The notes below the pieces were generated by a model. The model saw only the letters and a list, made by a program, of their open reading frames with translations. It did no database searches and had not been told where the DNA came from. From a phage, in sequence record OZ335960.1: a stretch of 64,000 nt of DNA, one strand, 5' to 3'. Positions 22,776 through 42,664 of the stretch are shown piece by piece (the stretch's first letter is position 1; each line of letters begins with the position of its first letter). The translations under genes and the position numbers were made by a program.

Positions 22776-23294
22776 TTAATAACCTCGGTCTTGACGAGCG
22801 AAGTTTTCGGCATTTTTTAGATAATAAAGTTTAAAGATTTCTTCAGCCGTAAGACCGAGACTCTGGAACATGTTCAGAACGAAATGAAGAATATCAATCA
22901 TTTCAAATTTAATTTCCAACTGGTCTTGTGGAGATAAGTCAGTAATCAGAGTTTCACGACGTTCACCGTGTTGAGCTTTCCACGGCTTCCATACAGCAGA
23001 TGCATCTTTTTCGCCATTGCTCATACCACCAAGAGAAGTCAGTAGTTCGCGGAATTCATCATCAATATAATCTTTCTGATTACGCAGCCAATCAACAACT
23101 TCACCTGCGGTAGCCAAATCATCAGGATGACGGTTATATTCAGGTTTATCTTTAGCTAAACGAACCTGCAGAGATTTCTGCATATCAAGCATAACTTGCA
23201 GCGGATCTTTTTCATCACCGAGAATATCCCAGTATTCGTTTTGAGCTTTATCAGCGCCTTCAATCAGTTGTGAACATTCATTAAAGTAAGCCAT
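22776..23294 (-). CDS. 56: dCTP pyrophosphatase gp56
   Basis: 172 aa from ATG at 23294 with SD AAAGGA; MazG-like; T4 gp56 is 171 aa. Confidence 0.75.
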   Translation of the reverse strand: MAYFNECSQLIEGADKAQNEYWDILGDEKDPLQVMLDMQKSLQVRLAKDKPEYNRHPDDLATAGEVVDWLRNQKDYIDDEFRELLTSLGGMSNGEKDASAVWKPWKAQHGERRETLITDLSPQDQLEIKFEMIDILHFVLNMFQSLGLTAEEIFKLYYLKNAENFARQDRGY

Positions 23295-23365
23295 TATTTT
23301 TCCTTTCAATTCATGGGTTAGTAGATTAATTATACAATAAATATATAAAGCAATAAGGAGGACAT

Positions 23366-23566
23366 ATGGTACAAAAATTAATGGCACTTGTTAATGCCAT
23401 AAAAGGTAATAAAAGACGTATAGCTTTTACTATTTCTGCTATGGTAGGAATTTTACTTTGGAATTTTATTTTATCACCAATTGCTATTGCTCATGGCGTT
23501 AATATTCCAGTAATTACTCTTGATACATTCGTAGATTTAGCATTTGCTTTAGTTGGGTTAATTTAA
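23366..23566 (+). CDS. small membrane protein, 66 aa, plus strand
   Basis: Strong SD AAGGAGG 4 nt before ATG; two hydrophobic segments; intergenic between 56 and 61. Confidence 0.4.
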   Translation: MVQKLMALVNAIKGNKRRIAFTISAMVGILLWNFILSPIAIAHGVNIPVITLDTFVDLAFALVGLI

Positions 23567-24591
23567 ATCTTAGCATATTTAGATAGCCGCATTTTAGCCA
23601 TCAACCCTTGAGCAATATTATTTTTCATATATTCCATAATTTGTTCAGGGGTTGCACCTTCCTTTCTAATCATATCATTAACATCTTTTGATTTCCAGGG
23701 AGATTTGTCCCAAAACATAACCCTTTCTCCTGCATCAACTAATTTAGTCATTCGTTTAATAGTGTCAGGGTGACGAGGTTCATTATCTAAAACCCATACA
23801 CGTCTATCTTTAAATGGAACAATTTCTAGGTCTAATTGACCACCCGTAATAGCTATACCATTTTCAATAAAAAGTGAATCTATAGGTCCTTCTAGAACAT
23901 ATACATCACCATCTTTGACTCGTTCAACTCCATAGATTTTTGTTGCCTCAGGATAAGCTTTGATGGTAATATATTTTTGAGGAGCATCTTTCTTTAGTGC
24001 ACGTCCTTGAAAAGACTCAGCTTTTCCATTAGCGTTATAAATTGGAATAACAAGACGAGGCTCAGGTATTTCCTTTTTATATGTTCCTGGCGCTATACTA
24101 TTAACTAATTTAGGCCATTCGGTTGTAAACCAAAGATATTTCCATTTATCCTTTGGAATACAACGAGCTTTTACATATTTTATAATTGGATGGTCTTCCG
24201 CCAGTTTATCTAATCTAATGCATGACGGAAGAGATTTAATTATTTTCTTCTCAGGTTGTTTAGGAAGTTCTTTAGGTTTTTCTACTGGACGACTTTTACC
24301 TTTTTCTTTTCTTATTTCAAAGATATACTCACGATATAAATCGGGTTCAAACTCCTTTAAATATATTCCAATTGGTGCATGATAGTTACAGTTATAACAA
24401 TGAATATTTCCTTCATTATTATCACCATAATACCATCCACGGGCTTTATTTTGGTCGGTTTTTGAATCTCCACAAACAGGGCATCTAAACCGCAATTTAA
24501 AAGTTGAACTATTATTTACTTGTGTGAATTTAGGTAAATGAGCTAATGCACGGTATGCAAACTCATTATCAATCCAAGGTATTGATGACAT
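23563..24591 (-). CDS. 61: DNA primase gp61
   Basis: 342 aa as T4 gp61; zinc ribbon CPVCGDS...CYNC. Confidence 0.9.
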   Translation of the reverse strand: MSSIPWIDNEFAYRALAHLPKFTQVNNSSTFKLRFRCPVCGDSKTDQNKARGWYYGDNNEGNIHCYNCNYHAPIGIYLKEFEPDLYREYIFEIRKEKGKSRPVEKPKELPKQPEKKIIKSLPSCIRLDKLAEDHPIIKYVKARCIPKDKWKYLWFTTEWPKLVNSIAPGTYKKEIPEPRLVIPIYNANGKAESFQGRALKKDAPQKYITIKAYPEATKIYGVERVKDGDVYVLEGPIDSLFIENGIAITGGQLDLEIVPFKDRRVWVLDNEPRHPDTIKRMTKLVDAGERVMFWDKSPWKSKDVNDMIRKEGATPEQIMEYMKNNIAQGLMAKMRLSKYAKI

Positions 24592-27059: not shown

Positions 27060-27404
27060 TTAAAAGAATTTAAATTTTTTCTTTGACCTTTTATTAAATG
27101 CATCTTGTAGTTGCATTGTAATACATTTTTCTACATGAGGAGCTAACTCAGCTTTTCTTTCTTGGTCAAGAACAGCAAAGTCCATTACGACTTTTCCATC
27201 AACCCAATCTAATTTTGTCACATACACAATGTGTGTAGAACCGTCTTCTAGTTTAATGACAATCTCCTGGATAACATTTTCCATGGCAGATTTAATTATC
27301 TTAAGAGATTCATTAAAAAGACGTTCTTTTCTTTCTTCTTCCCCCTCCGAAGAGGGGGATTCATCGATAATTTCTAGATCTAAATCTAAATCATCTTTAT
27401 TCAT
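27060..27404 (-). CDS. 40: gp40 head vertex assembly chaperone
   Basis: 114 aa from ATG at 27404; position between uvsX and 41. Confidence 0.6.
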   Translation of the reverse strand: MNKDDLDLDLEIIDESPSSEGEEERKERLFNESLKIIKSAMENVIQEIVIKLEDGSTHIVYVTKLDWVDGKVVMDFAVLDQERKAELAPHVEKCITMQLQDAFNKRSKKKFKFF

Positions 27405-28578
27405 TAAATTCTTCCATATCACTTAACTGATCTAGGTCAGTTTCTAAATCAGCTGCTGATTTACTTTTACTTTCTGGAGATTTAAATTTTTCAACCTTTG
27501 AGTTAATCAATTCATCAACTTCAGCTTCAACAATTTCATTACTATCAATAGCACCTAACTGATAAGCACGTTTAATAGCATCTCGGAATGGTTGATGCTT
27601 AAATAAAGGACCCCAGAATGTAGTGCAATTGGTATCTTTTGCACGCCAAGATTTTTCTTCGCGAATCATCTCGCCGGTTTCTTCGTCAAGAAATTCACGA
27701 GCATACCAGCCATTTTTAGGTTTTACCACAAATCCTAATTCAAGAGCCATATCTAACAATCCAGAATAAGGATCGATACCACCGTCAAATTTAACATCAA
27801 TAAAGAATTTACTTTTTTCTTTAACGGTACGAGATTTTTCTACATTTAGAACAAATTGATACCCCTGAAGATCAGAACCATCTTTAATCTGGCGCTTACC
27901 GATAATGAATACAGTATCAGCCGAATACATTACGCCTGTACCACCTGTCATCACGGTTTTACTAAACATTTCAATTGTTTCAATTGTATGGTTAACCGCA
28001 ACACATGGAATGTTTTTAATACTAAAATAAGGAGTAACAATACGGAATAATGACTTCAGTGATTTAGCACGAGTCATATCTGCCACAGATTTTTCATTCA
28101 AGGCATCTTCCGTTTCTTTCTTAGAAGCCATATTACCAATTGAGTCGATGAATACAATAACTTTTTCACCACGCTCAATAGCTTCAAGCTGATTCACCAT
28201 ATCAATTTTCAGCTGTTCAACTGACTGGATTGGTGTATGAATTACTCGTTCCGGGTCAACTCCCATGGATCGCAAATAAGCAGGAGTAATACCAAATTCG
28301 CTATCATAGAATAGACATACCGCGTCAGGATATTTGTTCAAATACGCCGCAACCATAGTCAAAGACATATTTGATTTAAAGTGTTTAGAAGGACCTGCAA
28401 AAATAGTTAAACCAGACTGCATACCACCGTCAATCGCACCTGAAATAGCGATATTAAGCATTGGGATTTTTGTACGGATTACATCCTTTTCATTAAAGAA
28501 TTTAGATGTAGTCAGTTCAGCAGTCATTTTAGAAGTGGAAGCTTTAATCAAACGGGATTTTAAATCTGCAATAGACAT
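27397..28578 (-). CDS. uvsX: UvsX recombinase (RecA-like)
   Basis: 393 aa; Walker A GPSKHFKS; acidic C-terminal tail. Confidence 0.9.
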   Translation of the reverse strand: MSIADLKSRLIKASTSKMTAELTTSKFFNEKDVIRTKIPMLNIAISGAIDGGMQSGLTIFAGPSKHFKSNMSLTMVAAYLNKYPDAVCLFYDSEFGITPAYLRSMGVDPERVIHTPIQSVEQLKIDMVNQLEAIERGEKVIVFIDSIGNMASKKETEDALNEKSVADMTRAKSLKSLFRIVTPYFSIKNIPCVAVNHTIETIEMFSKTVMTGGTGVMYSADTVFIIGKRQIKDGSDLQGYQFVLNVEKSRTVKEKSKFFIDVKFDGGIDPYSGLLDMALELGFVVKPKNGWYAREFLDEETGEMIREEKSWRAKDTNCTTFWGPLFKHQPFRDAIKRAYQLGAIDSNEIVEAEVDELINSKVEKFKSPESKSKSAADLETDLDQLSDMEEFNE

Positions 28579-28655
28579 TCATTTTTTCCATAGGCATCAT
28601 TATATTTTCCTCACTGGTTAAAGATAGAGTAATTATAACACAATAAATTTAGGCA

Positions 28656-29504
28656 TTAATCAACTGCTATTGGATGAATAGCATTAAACTTATGAAACGC
28701 TTCTGATTTTTCTTTGCGCGAAACACACATGCGAAGAACCTTTAATGGCTCGTCTTCTTCACCTAATGATTTTCGTTTTTCAATATTCGATGTTTTCCAA
28801 CGAGCTTGCTCTGGAAACTCTCTATTGATTTGCTCAAGCGCTCTATTATGTTTAGAATTACTACGAATTGAACTACATCCGCCTGGGGCTTGTGCTTTTC
28901 CAGATACAACCAGATATTTGAACAAGGCCAAATGCGGATAACCTTGATTAATTAAATTGAGAAATGCATACATATCTTCGCATAAATCAATTTTTCCATA
29001 CCCAATTTGTTCTGTTGTAAGTTTTCCAAGGTCATACCAGGTATTCGTGAATCCATATGAATTTTCACGATAATTACCCCAAGATGAAGTAATTTTAAAA
29101 ATAGGCAGACGAGCATGACCATGATAATACCCGCAATCCATGGCATCTTCAACGTATTGAATCAATTCATAGAACTGTTCACGAGTTAACTGATTAATTT
29201 TATCTACGCAGCGACGATCATCTTTCTTTCGCATTGAACTCATACGAATAGTAGTATCATCATCAATCATCCAAATTCGTTGACCTGCATACATATCAGT
29301 AATTGCTTTACGAGTACCAGCAATTCCGTTAACATCATCAGGAATAATTATAATTTTAGCTCTAGACCCGTAAGCGTCATAATAAGCTTTTTCTTCGTGT
29401 TCACGTACTACAATATGAGGTTCATAATCAGTCGGAAACATATCAAGGGCAGAAACTGCCCCTACGCGCTGATAGCTTGGAATTACGAATTGAATCATTT
29501 CCAC
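28656..29504 (-). CDS. DNA glucosyltransferase, probably beta-glucosyl-HMC-alpha-glucosyltransferase
   Basis: 282 aa in b-gt position but shorter than the ~351 aa I recall for T4 b-gt; size fits T2/T6 ba-gt. Confidence 0.6.
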   Translation of the reverse strand: MEMIQFVIPSYQRVGAVSALDMFPTDYEPHIVVREHEEKAYYDAYGSRAKIIIIPDDVNGIAGTRKAITDMYAGQRIWMIDDDTTIRMSSMRKKDDRRCVDKINQLTREQFYELIQYVEDAMDCGYYHGHARLPIFKITSSWGNYRENSYGFTNTWYDLGKLTTEQIGYGKIDLCEDMYAFLNLINQGYPHLALFKYLVVSGKAQAPGGCSSIRSNSKHNRALEQINREFPEQARWKTSNIEKRKSLGEEDEPLKVLRMCVSRKEKSEAFHKFNAIHPIAVD

Positions 29505-30235
29505 TCACCGTTATAATCTTTTTTCGCAATATGAGTTTCGCCAGTTTTCCACCAATGGTCAACCAAATAAAAATGACGGGAATACACATGAAGGCTTCCG
29601 ACATTCCATATAATGGAACCTGCTTTATACTGACGAGTTGAATCACCTGCATTCAAATCAGATACTAATTTATCTAGTACGTATTTTTGCCACGCATAAT
29701 CATTACGGAATCCGAAGACCACGTCATTTGAACGCATGCTTACTACTGCATTGACTTTCTTATCACGAATCAGGTACTGTACTGTATTCGTACACATGAA
29801 ATCTGACATACCATCTTTACGATAGTCAAACTGCATGGATGGGCGAGTATAAATCATGATACCACGCCGAGAATCAGGATTTTGACCAAGTTCAAATAAA
29901 CACATATCATACTGGGCATAGTTATCTTCTGACCAGATGGCCCAACCATAATTCGAGTTAATTTCGCCTTTAGAAGATGCTACCTGCTGCCAAATCTTTG
30001 GTGTTTCGCCTGGAATATCTTTAACAAACAAACTTTTAGATTTATACCATTCAAGTTCACGCTGAATGTATTCATCATTAAGAGCGCCAAAAATAAACGG
30101 TTCATCTGCTACAAATGATGCACCAATAATTTCAATAGTTTTAACACCAGTTTTATCAACTACGAAATCTTTTTCCTTTAATGCAAGCCCCAAATGAAGA
30201 CGGATTTCTTCAACTGTCATAGAGTCACTAATCAT
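29495..30235 (-). CDS. 42: dCMP hydroxymethylase gp42
   Basis: 246 aa as T4 gp42; thymidylate-synthase-like. Confidence 0.9.
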   Translation of the reverse strand: MISDSMTVEEIRLHLGLALKEKDFVVDKTGVKTIEIIGASFVADEPFIFGALNDEYIQRELEWYKSKSLFVKDIPGETPKIWQQVASSKGEINSNYGWAIWSEDNYAQYDMCLFELGQNPDSRRGIMIYTRPSMQFDYRKDGMSDFMCTNTVQYLIRDKKVNAVVSMRSNDVVFGFRNDYAWQKYVLDKLVSDLNAGDSTRQYKAGSIIWNVGSLHVYSRHFYLVDHWWKTGETHIAKKDYNGEWK

Positions 30236-30388
30236 TTAAACCTCAATTGATACATTCATATTTAACTTGTAACAGTAATAAACCCCAACCTATAATAAGG
30301 GTCGGAATCATAAGAGGAACCGTTACGCTATAGTATATACTTATTATAATCATCAAGATTAAAAGCAATACTGCTAAAATTTTGCTTT

Positions 30389-30640
30389 TCATTCCTTCTC
30401 TCTGATGATAATTACTTGATTTTGCTGTGCGGATTTTTTAGTTTCACCCGCAATTGACCAAATAAAGGTAATAAACCAACCAATAATTGACCAATTAAAC
30501 AGTAAAGATGTGAAAAAGATTCCTACTGTCGATTTTGACCCACGCATCAAGGCGATGAACCATGGAAGCATGTATATAATAATAGCCAACACGCCTGAAA
30601 CTAAAACCATAAAAATTGAACCTGCTACTAAAGTTTCCAC
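30389..30640 (-). CDS. imm: Imm superinfection immunity membrane protein
   Basis: 83 aa, two TM segments. Confidence 0.8.
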   Translation of the reverse strand: METLVAGSIFMVLVSGVLAIIIYMLPWFIALMRGSKSTVGIFFTSLLFNWSIIGWFITFIWSIAGETKKSAQQNQVIIIREKE

Positions 30641-30647
30641 GTTTTCC

Positions 30648-31028
30648 TCACTTAATCAAATTTTTTACACATGAATTATAAGAATTCACTACATACTCCA
30701 TTGGAGCATTTTTACCAGTACGCCATTGATAATTATTAGCCCAATTAGCCCAAAGTTCGGCACAGTAGTTTTCAATTTTTTCTTCGCGTGTAATTACATC
30801 TGAATTACGATATGCTTGAGCAGATTCATCTGGACGAATAGCTTCGTCAAAATTCGCCTGCATTTGTTCTACTGTCTGTTTTGGAGCCTCTTTATAACAC
30901 TTAACGTTAGGATTATAAAATTTGCTTGAACAATTTACAATTTTTCCTGCGTCAGACTGATTTACTACTGATCCTTGAGCTACACAGCCAGTAAGACCCA
31001 ATGCAATAACCAAAATAGCGATTTTCAT
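30648..31028 (-). CDS. predicted lipoprotein, 126 aa (imm.1 position)
   Basis: ATG at 31028 with SD GGAG; signal peptide and lipobox LTGC; longer track ORF is promoter read-through. Confidence 0.55.
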   Translation of the reverse strand: MKIAILVIALGLTGCVAQGSVVNQSDAGKIVNCSSKFYNPNVKCYKEAPKQTVEQMQANFDEAIRPDESAQAYRNSDVITREEKIENYCAELWANWANNYQWRTGKNAPMEYVVNSYNSCVKNLIK

Positions 31029-31057
31029 TTCATTCTCCAAATCCGTATCAGTTGATA

Positions 31058-31094
31058 GTTGTATAGTACCACAGAGGAACAGTCTTGTAAACAG
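31058..31094 (-). promoter_or_regulatory. T4-type early promoter
   Basis: Conserved repeat, -35 rc 31086-31092, -10 rc 31061-31068. Confidence 0.55.
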
Positions 31095-31175
31095 TTTTGT
31101 GAAAAAATTTTTAATGAATTTACAGGACCTAGAATCATCTATTTTTCTTAAGTATAGATTTATATTACTTGTATG

Positions 31176-31197
31176 AAAAAGGGACCCGGAGGTCCCT
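31176..31197 (-). terminator. hairpin terminator after gene 43
   Basis: GGGACC-UCCG-GGUCCC plus U-run on minus strand. Confidence 0.55.
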
Positions 31198-31209
31198 AGA
31201 TTTATTCTA

Positions 31210-33906
31210 TCAGCCAAACAGGAAGTCTAACGAAGCTTTTTCCTCATAGTCCATACCTGCCGATTCACACATACCCGCAAGCGGTTTAACAAACGATTTT
31301 TGGAACAAAGTTGAGTAGTCAATCCAAGACAGTACGTCAGAACGAATTTCCTTTGGAAGTTCTGTGCCTGACGGCCAAGCAATGCACTTATCACCAAATG
31401 GATTTCCTTCACGTAATGGAAGAACCATTACCTTATTTCCATCCAAAATTGGAGCTACACCTAAACCGCTAACAGCTCGACGATAAGTTAGCACACCACG
31501 AATATGGAACGGACATTTAAATCCTGGCCAACCTTTATCATCATATTTCGCTATATCGTTCGCAGTTTTTACTTCAGCAATAACTTTATAGTCAAGTTGA
31601 CGATATTCTTTCTCAAAGTTCTTGTAGTATTCTTGGACAGACTCTTCGCCTTCCTGAAGAATACGACGAATACTTTCTTCGAGAGCTTCTTGCACTGCTT
31701 TTGGTGTTGAACTTTGCTGAGTTTCCATACCCATGATTTTTAGATGCGGTTCAGCAAATCGCTTATCTTCCATATCATAAACGTTCAGAGCATAACGTTT
31801 TTTCGCTTTCCAAAATCCACCAACACCCTTTGAACCAAGCGGAGGGCAAGAAATAGCTTCACGGTCCATATGCATCAGATGCTCGCGGTTATTCATATAG
31901 TCACATAACTCACGATATGCAACATCAATCATCGGTTCCATCTTTTTCTTACCGAACTGATTCATGAATTCAACTAAATCATTTTGTTCTTTAAAGCGGT
32001 CAAGACCTACTTTTTCAATTACTTTATCTACACAAACATATACCGAATCAGTATCACCTGCTGCGATGAAATCTTCACCATTAGTTCCACATACTTTATT
32101 CAGATATTCATTAATTTTGCGAGCAATCCATTGAATACCGACTTGACCGAAAATTGTGATAGCAGTAGCATTTCGCAAATCATAGTAGCGAAAATGAATA
32201 TTACCAAGAGCACCATAAAGACTGTTAATAAGAATTTTACGGTTCAGCTGATTTGTGTTAGCAAGCGTAGCTGCTTTTTCACATTCTTCGATCAGACTAT
32301 TAAGAACAGATTCAGTGTAATTCGATAATTCGTTTAAGAAATCATCATTGAACTTAACATATCGTTCAACTTCCGGTTTAGTTGAACAAGACCCTGCACC
32401 TTTCATAATAATTTTTTTAATAGCTTCGGCATTCATTTCTTCCGCGAACATTTTCTTTTTCCAATCTTTACGCTGGAAAAATACTTTAGCGATTTCCTTT
32501 GGAATGATACCTTCTTGGTGCTTATCATACATCCATCCATTCGGAGAACAAGAATATTCATCACTTGGCTTAGGAGCTGTTCCTGCGATATATTCATGAA
32601 TTGGATGAACTTTAAACTGCCCACGAATAGTCTCAGGACTAATGTTAACCTGACGAATAATGCTAGGATACAGAGACGTCAAGTCAAAACTCATAATGTA
32701 TCGACGAGCAATCGGTTTAGGTTCAAACACAAATGCACCTGGAAAACTCTGTTTAACGTGCGAACCTTGTTGAGGAATAACCTTATGTTCACCTTTCAGT
32801 GAGTTAAAAATAATAGCATCCCAAGTTTTAATAGGACTCATTACACCAGAAAAAGGCATTTTAGCGTAATAAGACATACTTAAAACTAGATCGATAAACC
32901 CACGAATTTTATCAATTGCTTGAACTGATTCTACGTCAATGATGTTATAACTAATGTATCGTTGATGATTAGTCTCACGAAGTTTATTAATAGGACCATC
33001 ATACGGCAATTTACCTTTTTTGGTTTCATGTTGAGCAACTGATTCCAAAGAGAACGATGGCAAATTAGTAAATGCGAATTTCTTGTACAAATCTAAATAA
33101 TCAAGAATAGATACACCATCAATAGAATAAATTTCTTTGCTACCGTACATATTTTGAATTAGTTTAGATTTTACTCGACCGATTGGAGAGAAGCGTTTCA
33201 TACTACGTTCACCGAGAACCATTTTAACACGATTCATGATATACGGAACGTCAAATCCCTCAATATTCCAACCAGTAAAAATAGCAGGTCGTTTCTGTTC
33301 CCAGAGATTAATATATTCCATGAGCATATCACGCTCACTATCAAATGGCATATAAATTACTCGGTCAAGAATTTCTTGAGGAACTTCATCACCACCTTCA
33401 CAGTCAAGCTTAGCAGCTAACTTTGCATCCCATTTTGATACTGAACCGTACATTGAATTCAACAAATCAAAGACGTAAAAACGGTCGTCAATTGAATCAT
33501 AATGAGTGATAGCATCAATTTCATATTCTGCTTTCATTGGGTCAGGAAATTTATCACCAGTAACCTCAATGTCACAGTTAGCTACACGAACAAATTTTCG
33601 GTCATAAACAATTTCTGAACCATATGTATCACTGATATAAGCGAGTTTAAAATCGTTCATACCGAGAGCTTCGAGACCGATGTCTTCCATTCGCTTCATC
33701 CAGTCTCGCGCATCTTTCATTGATGGAAATTTTTGAGGAGCGCAATTTTTACCATAAATGTCTTTGTATTTTGACTCTTCCTTACAATGCCTAAACATAG
33801 TCGGAAGATATTCTACTTCGCGAGTACGTTCCTTTCCGTTTTCATCAATATAACGCTCAACAATATTATTTCCGACTGTTTCGATAGAGATATAAAATTC
33901 TTTCAT
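31210..33906 (-). CDS. 43: DNA polymerase gp43 (family B)
   Basis: 898 aa as T4 gp43; exonuclease motifs and polymerase YGDTDS. Confidence 0.95.
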   Translation of the reverse strand: MKEFYISIETVGNNIVERYIDENGKERTREVEYLPTMFRHCKEESKYKDIYGKNCAPQKFPSMKDARDWMKRMEDIGLEALGMNDFKLAYISDTYGSEIVYDRKFVRVANCDIEVTGDKFPDPMKAEYEIDAITHYDSIDDRFYVFDLLNSMYGSVSKWDAKLAAKLDCEGGDEVPQEILDRVIYMPFDSERDMLMEYINLWEQKRPAIFTGWNIEGFDVPYIMNRVKMVLGERSMKRFSPIGRVKSKLIQNMYGSKEIYSIDGVSILDYLDLYKKFAFTNLPSFSLESVAQHETKKGKLPYDGPINKLRETNHQRYISYNIIDVESVQAIDKIRGFIDLVLSMSYYAKMPFSGVMSPIKTWDAIIFNSLKGEHKVIPQQGSHVKQSFPGAFVFEPKPIARRYIMSFDLTSLYPSIIRQVNISPETIRGQFKVHPIHEYIAGTAPKPSDEYSCSPNGWMYDKHQEGIIPKEIAKVFFQRKDWKKKMFAEEMNAEAIKKIIMKGAGSCSTKPEVERYVKFNDDFLNELSNYTESVLNSLIEECEKAATLANTNQLNRKILINSLYGALGNIHFRYYDLRNATAITIFGQVGIQWIARKINEYLNKVCGTNGEDFIAAGDTDSVYVCVDKVIEKVGLDRFKEQNDLVEFMNQFGKKKMEPMIDVAYRELCDYMNNREHLMHMDREAISCPPLGSKGVGGFWKAKKRYALNVYDMEDKRFAEPHLKIMGMETQQSSTPKAVQEALEESIRRILQEGEESVQEYYKNFEKEYRQLDYKVIAEVKTANDIAKYDDKGWPGFKCPFHIRGVLTYRRAVSGLGVAPILDGNKVMVLPLREGNPFGDKCIAWPSGTELPKEIRSDVLSWIDYSTLFQKSFVKPLAGMCESAGMDYEEKASLDFLFG

Positions 33907-41461: not shown

Positions 41462-42664
41462 TTATTTTGTAATAATGTCAAATTGTTCTTTAAAGCAGAA
41501 GCTTGAATCTTGATGCTGATACAAAAATTCATAAGCTTTTTCGCGTTCACGGTCATAAAGAGTTCGGTCAGATGACAGTTCTTTAATACGCTCAAATGTT
41601 GATTCCATGTCATTTTCATCAAACCAAACGATACCGCTATCATGAGAAATTAACGGAGTATTATCAACACGGAATTTTAAATTTTCGCCAGTAGATTTCC
41701 AAAATACTGGAATTGTTCCACATGCACCAAGCTCGAGATGAGTATATTCTAAAGAACGTTGTAGATATTTTTTATCCAACTTACTCAGCTGATAACCAAA
41801 TCCGGATTTACTCATGCGTTCAAGCATTTCGCTATTTACATAACGGTCGAGAATTTGCGTTGGCAAATTAGGAGCAATTTTAATTTGGTCTACTTGATGA
41901 AGACGATAATACTCGTATGGAATTCCTTTTTCTTTAATAGGAATGAACGCTGGAGAACGTTCCAGACCTTCCATAATAGTACTTAGTCCAGCAGGTTTAA
42001 GATGTTTTTCGTGAAAATCAAACATCTGATAAAAACCTTTCCATGTAGTCGTACGACCAATCCAACGGTTGACATTCATGTTAATTTCAGAAACATCTTT
42101 CCAGTAGGTTGATCGAACCTTCGCAATATCCATAGGAGGCTGAAAGTTGTATACAGTCGGTGCTTCTTCAATATCATCAAACAGTGAAACAGTTTCTGGA
42201 TACCATTCTTTCATCAAAACTTTATTAAAATCACCATTATCAGAATGACTAAAAATAACATCAGCTCGACGAACAGTTTCTTCTAACCCCAAATTTCGGC
42301 GCAAAGAAAGAGAAGAATGGTCATGTTGATAAACTACAACACGAACCGAAGGTTTAATGTTATCAATAATTTTTTTATAGTTATTAATAGTGTCTTCTTC
42401 GACTGAAGTAGCAGGAACTGAATTGATAATTAGAATATCACAATCATTTACCAGCTTAAGTGTTTTATCGTATTCTTTTGCCAATAAAACCGGAATTGAA
42501 AATGATTTATAATCATGCGCGCAATTACGGGTAAATGATTTATCTTTAGCATAAACCAAAGTTACTTCATGACCATTTTTAATAAACCAATCACGTTGCT
42601 CGAGAGAAAATTTAGTTACGCCGCAACCTTCAAGACCTCTAGCCATAAAAATACATACTTTCAT
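41462..42664 (-). CDS. a-gt: DNA alpha-glucosyltransferase
   Basis: 400 aa as T4 a-gt; position between 47 and 55. Confidence 0.85.
   Translation of the reverse strand: MKVCIFMARGLEGCGVTKFSLEQRDWFIKNGHEVTLVYAKDKSFTRNCAHDYKSFSIPVLLAKEYDKTLKLVNDCDILIINSVPATSVEEDTINNYKKIIDNIKPSVRVVVYQHDHSSLSLRRNLGLEETVRRADVIFSHSDNGDFNKVLMKEWYPETVSLFDDIEEAPTVYNFQPPMDIAKVRSTYWKDVSEINMNVNRWIGRTTTWKGFYQMFDFHEKHLKPAGLSTIMEGLERSPAFIPIKEKGIPYEYYRLHQVDQIKIAPNLPTQILDRYVNSEMLERMSKSGFGYQLSKLDKKYLQRSLEYTHLELGACGTIPVFWKSTGENLKFRVDNTPLISHDSGIVWFDENDMESTFERIKELSSDRTLYDREREKAYEFLYQHQDSSFCFKEQFDIITK

Follow-up and report, generated by a model that had tools for sequence, protein, structure and literature searches.

Which host defences a T-even phage evades or triggers depends on the type of sugar that its hmC carries. 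The gene behind the second sugar in T2 and T6 is ba-gt (synonyms ggt and g-gt; EC 2.4.1.28), and the first cloning and sequencing of the T2 and T6 genes is reportedly due to Winkler and Rueger in 1993. Deletion of ba-gt (g-gt) in T6 leaves DNA with alpha-glucosyl-hmC only and changes the sensitivity to Brig1 and BapA (PMC11078745, PMC13160076). The glycosylase Brig1 excises alpha-glucosyl-hmC, whereas gentiobiosyl-hmC DNA is not degraded; GmrSD-type enzymes cut both forms, and hmC glycosylases and McrBC-type enzymes target the hmC that stays bare in T2/T6-type genomes (PMC11078745, PMC13160076, PMC13390438). Ten new Tequatrovirus isolates encode alpha-GT together with a TAGT, whose location is syntenic with that of beta-GT in T4, and lack beta-GT; HPLC/MS of their DNA detects hmC, alpha-glucosyl-hmC and alpha-gentiobiosyl-hmC and no beta-glucosyl-hmC (PMC13390438). 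The T6 enzyme has been modelled as GT-A, sister to GT2, whereas the alpha-GT and beta-GT of T4 are GT-B (2025 preprint, bioRxiv 10.64898/2025.12.06.692756). The extent of double glucosylation varies, since gentiobiosyl-hmC amounts to 5% in T2 versus 72% in T6 with near-identical ba-gt genes (PMC6024577).

The window analysed here is the whole stretch of 64,000 nucleotides of phage DNA (sequence record OZ335960.1). The gene order around ba-gt was confirmed by tblastn with T4 proteins, and the locus is composed of the following features:

27397..28578, minus strand: uvsX recombinase, the downstream neighbour of ba-gt that defines the locus, 90% to T4 UvsX
28656..29504, minus strand: ORF as listed, 282 aa from the mechanical first in-frame GTG
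28656..29498, minus strand: ba-gt (beta-glucosyl-HMC-alpha-glucosyltransferase, TAGT family), 280 aa from the ATG at 29498
29495..30235, minus strand: gene 42, dCMP hydroxymethylase (makes hm-dCMP), 96.7% to T4 gp42; PF00303

Further upstream, beyond gene 42 and on the same strand, are imm, imm.1 and the DNA polymerase gp43. The best match of the DNA between 27000 and 31500 is Shigella phage pSs-1 (98.2%). The preliminary description placed an ORF of 282 aa between uvsX and gene 42; its position and coordinates were exact, but the length counts from the GTG and 280 aa is the likelier value. In the start context GGTGAGTGGAAATGATTCAA (...GGT GAG TGG AAA TGA), the ATG at 29498 shares bases with the TGA that ends gene 42 (ATGA), and the T2 annotation uses the same ATG (843 nt, 280 aa). 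For these two reasons the gene is taken as 28656..29498, and this ATG is probably its true start. The overlap also suggests that ba-gt is translationally coupled to gene 42.

Between the window and T2, ba-gt differs at 41 nucleotides, and the codons affected are synonymous in 34 cases and non-synonymous in 5, which points to clear purifying selection. Given this mostly synonymous change and the tblastn matches in 690 phage records, the ORF is, on comparative grounds, a real gene and not a chance ORF. Two plus-strand ORFs that overlap it (28714..28941 and 29280..29516) are regarded as spurious, as the synonymous-dominated conservation fits the minus-strand frame.

The T2 (LC348380) and T6 (MH550421, AP018814) reference loci were fetched and compared directly. 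The window protein is 98% identical to T2 ba-gt across 280 aa, end to end, and 98% identical to T6 ba-gt, over 279 aa in AP018814 and 261 aa in the MH550421 annotation. T2 and T6 share with the window the uvsX-42 position, the ATGA overlap with gene 42 and the partner genes a-gt, 42 and 56. The protein matches PHROG 842, 'beta-glucosyl-HMC-alpha-glucosyltransferase' (E 7e-89), as well as Pfam PF20691, TAGT or TET-associated glycosyltransferase (E 6.5e-10; 39.7 bits against a gathering cutoff of 27.5 bits), where residues 5-209 align to model positions 2-205 of 205, i.e. the whole model. NCBIfam contains no model for ba-gt or a-gt, and a word-indexed homolog search with ba-gt returned 10 clusters. 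The earlier proposal of a T2/T6-type second-glucose enzyme is thus borne out by full-length identity in the same slot. Judged by its sequence, the gene is an intact ortholog of the already known ba-gt of T2/T6, and very probably it encodes the secondary DNA glucosyltransferase of this phage, making gentiobiosyl-hmC. The analysis shows its orthology and synteny, an unbroken motif, a predicted fold and the partner genes of the pathway. The assignment is correct but ordinary, as this is the usual arrangement in T4-like coliphages, and it adds no new biology.

The DxD motif of the window protein corresponds to D79-D80-D81 (DDD) and is invariant. The predicted structure is GT-A-like (Rossmann-like nucleotide-sugar), with the DxD after a central beta-strand, so that both the GT-A fold and the motif are found on the model; it agrees with the preprint model of the T6 enzyme (bioRxiv 10.64898/2025.12.06.692756). 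A PDB sequence search with the window protein gave nothing meaningful (best E 0.78, on His-tag-like stretches), and no solved structure of the ba-gt family is detectable by sequence. The whole-model match, the GT-A-like predicted fold and the DxD are features shared with the GT-A, GT2-like TAGT family. On the other hand, the family name refers to TET association, whereas the window ba-gt has no associated TET/JBP dioxygenase and hmC is made by gp42 at the nucleotide level. The acceptor also differs: following the T6 genetics literature, it would be the sugar on the base and not the base hydroxymethyl.

The pathway in which the enzyme would act includes, in addition to gene 42, two genes placed elsewhere in the window:

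41462..42664, minus strand: a-gt, DNA alpha-glucosyltransferase (makes alpha-glucosyl-hmC), 90.5% to T4 a-gt; PF11440 E 1e-235
22779..23294, minus strand: gene 56, dCTPase/dUTPase (keeps unmodified dCTP out of the precursor pool), 73% to T4 gp56; PF08761

With alpha-gt, gene 42, gene 56 and ba-gt present, the gene set is complete: by gene content, all genes for alpha-glucosyl- and gentiobiosyl-hmC DNA are encoded in the window and beta-gt is absent. In the proposed pathway, gp42 and gp56 would cause hydroxymethyl-dC to replace dC in the phage DNA. Then, alpha-gt would transfer glucose from UDP-glucose to hmC in alpha linkage, and ba-gt would add a second UDP-glucose-derived glucose to the O6 of the first one, in beta linkage, to give beta-1,6-glucosyl-alpha-glucosyl (gentiobiosyl) hmC. 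This beta-1,6 transfer to alpha-glucosyl-hmC is a prediction supported by the literature on the T6 deletion and by the HPLC/MS of sibling phages. The enzyme would bind UDP-glucose via a divalent metal on the DxD motif (D79-D81), its chemistry being likely inverting and metal-dependent, with UDP-alpha-Glc as donor and a beta product, and the catalytic base is possibly the invariant acidic pair E174-D175, by analogy with the 'ED/TED' motif of GT2. We infer in this way the activity, the catalytic residues, the metal dependence and the resulting DNA composition, which is predicted to comprise alpha-glucosyl-hmC and gentiobiosyl-hmC, with part of the hmC left bare, and no beta-glucosyl-hmC because beta-gt is absent from the window. 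The presence of alpha-gt, the absence of beta-gt and the ba-gt orthology together point to a modification of the T2/T6 type rather than of the T4 type, in line with the different pattern anticipated in the preliminary description. Such an a-gt plus ba-gt gene set predicts a defence-sensitivity profile, which is useful for annotation and for phage choice.

The differences to the reference enzymes are few. Five substitutions separate the window ba-gt from that of T2 (R11H, I51T, K92R, I101V and P251S, window to T2) and six from that of T6, plus an amber codon at Q10 in the MH550421 record. The window gene is intact, unlike the gene in both public T6 genome records. In MH550421 (7138..7980), codon 10 is TAG instead of CAG and the CDS is annotated from Met20, with 261 aa; in AP018814 (2135..2974), the GAT-GAT-GAT run is 3 nt shorter, so that the invariant DDD lacks one Asp. 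Either these lesions are sequencing errors, or the enzyme that gives T6 its hallmark 72% gentiobiosyl-hmC is lost or impaired in the sequenced T6 stocks. Neither lesion variant was found in a search of IMG/VR.

The first alternative to be weighed concerns the extent of the reaction. The gene may encode a true ba-gt that contributes little, as in T2, leaving about 5% gentiobiosyl-hmC and DNA that is essentially alpha-monoglucosylated; we consider this unlikely. The window alpha-gt shares 99% identity with the T2 enzyme, against only 91% with its T4 and T6 counterparts, and T2 itself, with an apparently intact ba-gt, reaches only ~5% double glucosylation (PMC6024577, PMC11078745). However, gentiobiosyl-hmC makes up ~40-67% in every one of the ten environmental Tequatrovirus isolates that carry this gene set and were measured (PMC13390438). 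The value is higher, about two-thirds, in the Durham-set isolates without a dam-like gene (PMC13390438), and the window is also dam-less, a parallel that is a correlation only. The interval concerned is:

22779..24591: 56-61 interval, without dam, which is also missing from the T6 record but present in T2 and T4

Relative to T4, the window lacks dam, segF and 61.2; with its T2-like alpha-gt, this amounts to mosaicism. The window ba-gt is likewise without the T2-specific residues H11 and S251, again only a correlate of a higher extent, and without the T6-specific N40, G55 and H106; its K92 and I101 are common to the main database cluster and I51 alone is unusual. To our knowledge, there is no sequence-level explanation for the difference between 5% in T2 and 72% in T6. 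The cause may lie in the alpha-gt allele, in residues of ba-gt, in Dam methylation or in expression. There is a slim chance that the phage is a natural mosaic of use in this respect, combining a T2-type alpha-gt, a T6-like 56-61 region without dam and a ba-gt devoid of T2- and T6-specific residues, whose ratio could help to map the T2/T6 difference. The ratio of single to double glucosylation itself is not readable from sequence, and the comparison of residues and dam is correlative.

A second alternative is that the protein is a TAGT-family enzyme with another acceptor or donor than in T2/T6, for instance acting directly on hmC or transferring another sugar. The Pfam family is broad, action directly on hmC has been proposed for TET-associated glycosyltransferases, and distant members are found in phages in which no primary GT is recognisable (bioRxiv 10.64898/2025.12.06.692756) or beside beta-gt (Serratia PS2, Enterobacter myPSH1140); this varied genomic company indicates that specificity varies across the family. 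For the window enzyme such a change is nevertheless very improbable, given that it is 98% identical to the T6 enzyme, which has been characterised genetically, that alpha-gt is present and that the few substitutions all lie outside the invariant motifs.

The weakest alternative, a shortened or diverged T4-type beta-glucosyltransferase, i.e. a primary GT placing beta-glucose directly on hmC, can draw on the slot that beta-gt holds in T4 and on database records that label one enzyme as the other (e.g. RB55), but it is virtually discounted by BLASTP against T4 beta-gt (E 3.5, no detectable similarity), by PF09198 (no match of the window protein at E<=1, against 9e-98 for T4 beta-gt), by a predicted fold that is GT-A-like and not the two-domain GT-B, and by the T4 beta-gt tblastn query, which, as with segA, has no match anywhere in the whole 64-kb window.

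Homology of the window gene to T4 beta-gt is consequently rejected by the BLASTP, tblastn and Pfam profile results, and the full-length similarity that would have spoken against the original proposal is absent. The length contrast drawn in the preliminary description also holds, as T4 beta-gt has 351 aa. The secondary glucosyltransferase ba-gt and T4 beta-gt (PF09198, GT-B) are alike in slot, UDP-glucose donor, beta anomeric outcome and hmC DNA target. They differ in sequence, with no similarity, and in fold (GT-B versus GT-A-like), as well as in the acceptor, which is bare hmC for beta-gt and alpha-glucosyl-hmC for ba-gt. In T4, segA lies between uvsX and b-gt, whereas the window has no segA. 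Taken by alignment and profile, the two genes are a non-homologous replacement at one locus.

Among phages, ba-gt is widespread. Approximately 473 of the 690 phage records matched by tblastn do so at 90% identity or more, and nearly all of these are Tequatrovirus-like, with Escherichia, Shigella, Yersinia and Salmonella as hosts. The next group, at 62-66% identity, comprises T4-like phages of Klebsiella, Enterobacter and Salmonella, and homologs of ~47% identity are found in Serratia phages. T4-type beta-gt at >=90% identity is present in 29 phage records versus the 473 of ba-gt; the window is therefore typical and T4 the exception, ba-gt being the usual state in the genus and in T4-like coliphages (see also bioRxiv 10.64898/2025.12.06.692756).

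In Serratia PS2 (NC_024121), Enterobacter myPSH1140 (NC_055739) and others, a beta-gt homolog (~50% to T4) adjoins a TAGT/ba-gt homolog (47-64%), with no alpha-gt. This pairing suggests that a second sugar is added onto beta-glucosyl-hmC. The adjacency has already been tabulated (PMC6024577; 2025 preprint bioRxiv 10.64898/2025.12.06.692756). Several labels in the public records are misleading: 'thymidylate synthase' is a widespread label for gene 42 (dCMP hydroxymethylase), imm.1 is entered as 'iduronate sulfatase', RB55 has a true T4-type beta-gt under the name 'beta-glucosyl-HMC-alpha-glucosyl-transferase', and many ba-gt genes are named 'b-gt'.

Two further features flank the genes of this locus:

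28579..28655, minus strand: ba-gt/uvsX intergenic region, 100% identity among the window, T2 and T6
30243..30392, minus strand: very hydrophobic 49-aa ORF (MKSKILAVLLLILMIIISIYYSV...) that fills the whole imm-42 gap, its ATG overlapping the imm stop (ATGA)

The intergenic region contains TGCCTAA, an 11-nt spacer and then TATAAT, a putative middle promoter that resembles the MotA type (MotA box). A generic sigma-70 promoter and terminator scan of 27300-31300 gave no enrichment over shuffles, a scan that is not informative for T4-type middle and late promoters. A strong GAGG Shine-Dalgarno precedes an ATGATG at ~28600, which is in another frame than the uvsX ATG (28578) and may open a short upstream ORF. 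In T4, T2 and T6 the frame of the 49-aa ORF is intact, with ~96% conservation. The ORF is unannotated in the T4 RefSeq and in the T2 and T6 feature tables, and is probably a real gene for a small membrane protein missed in the reference annotations.
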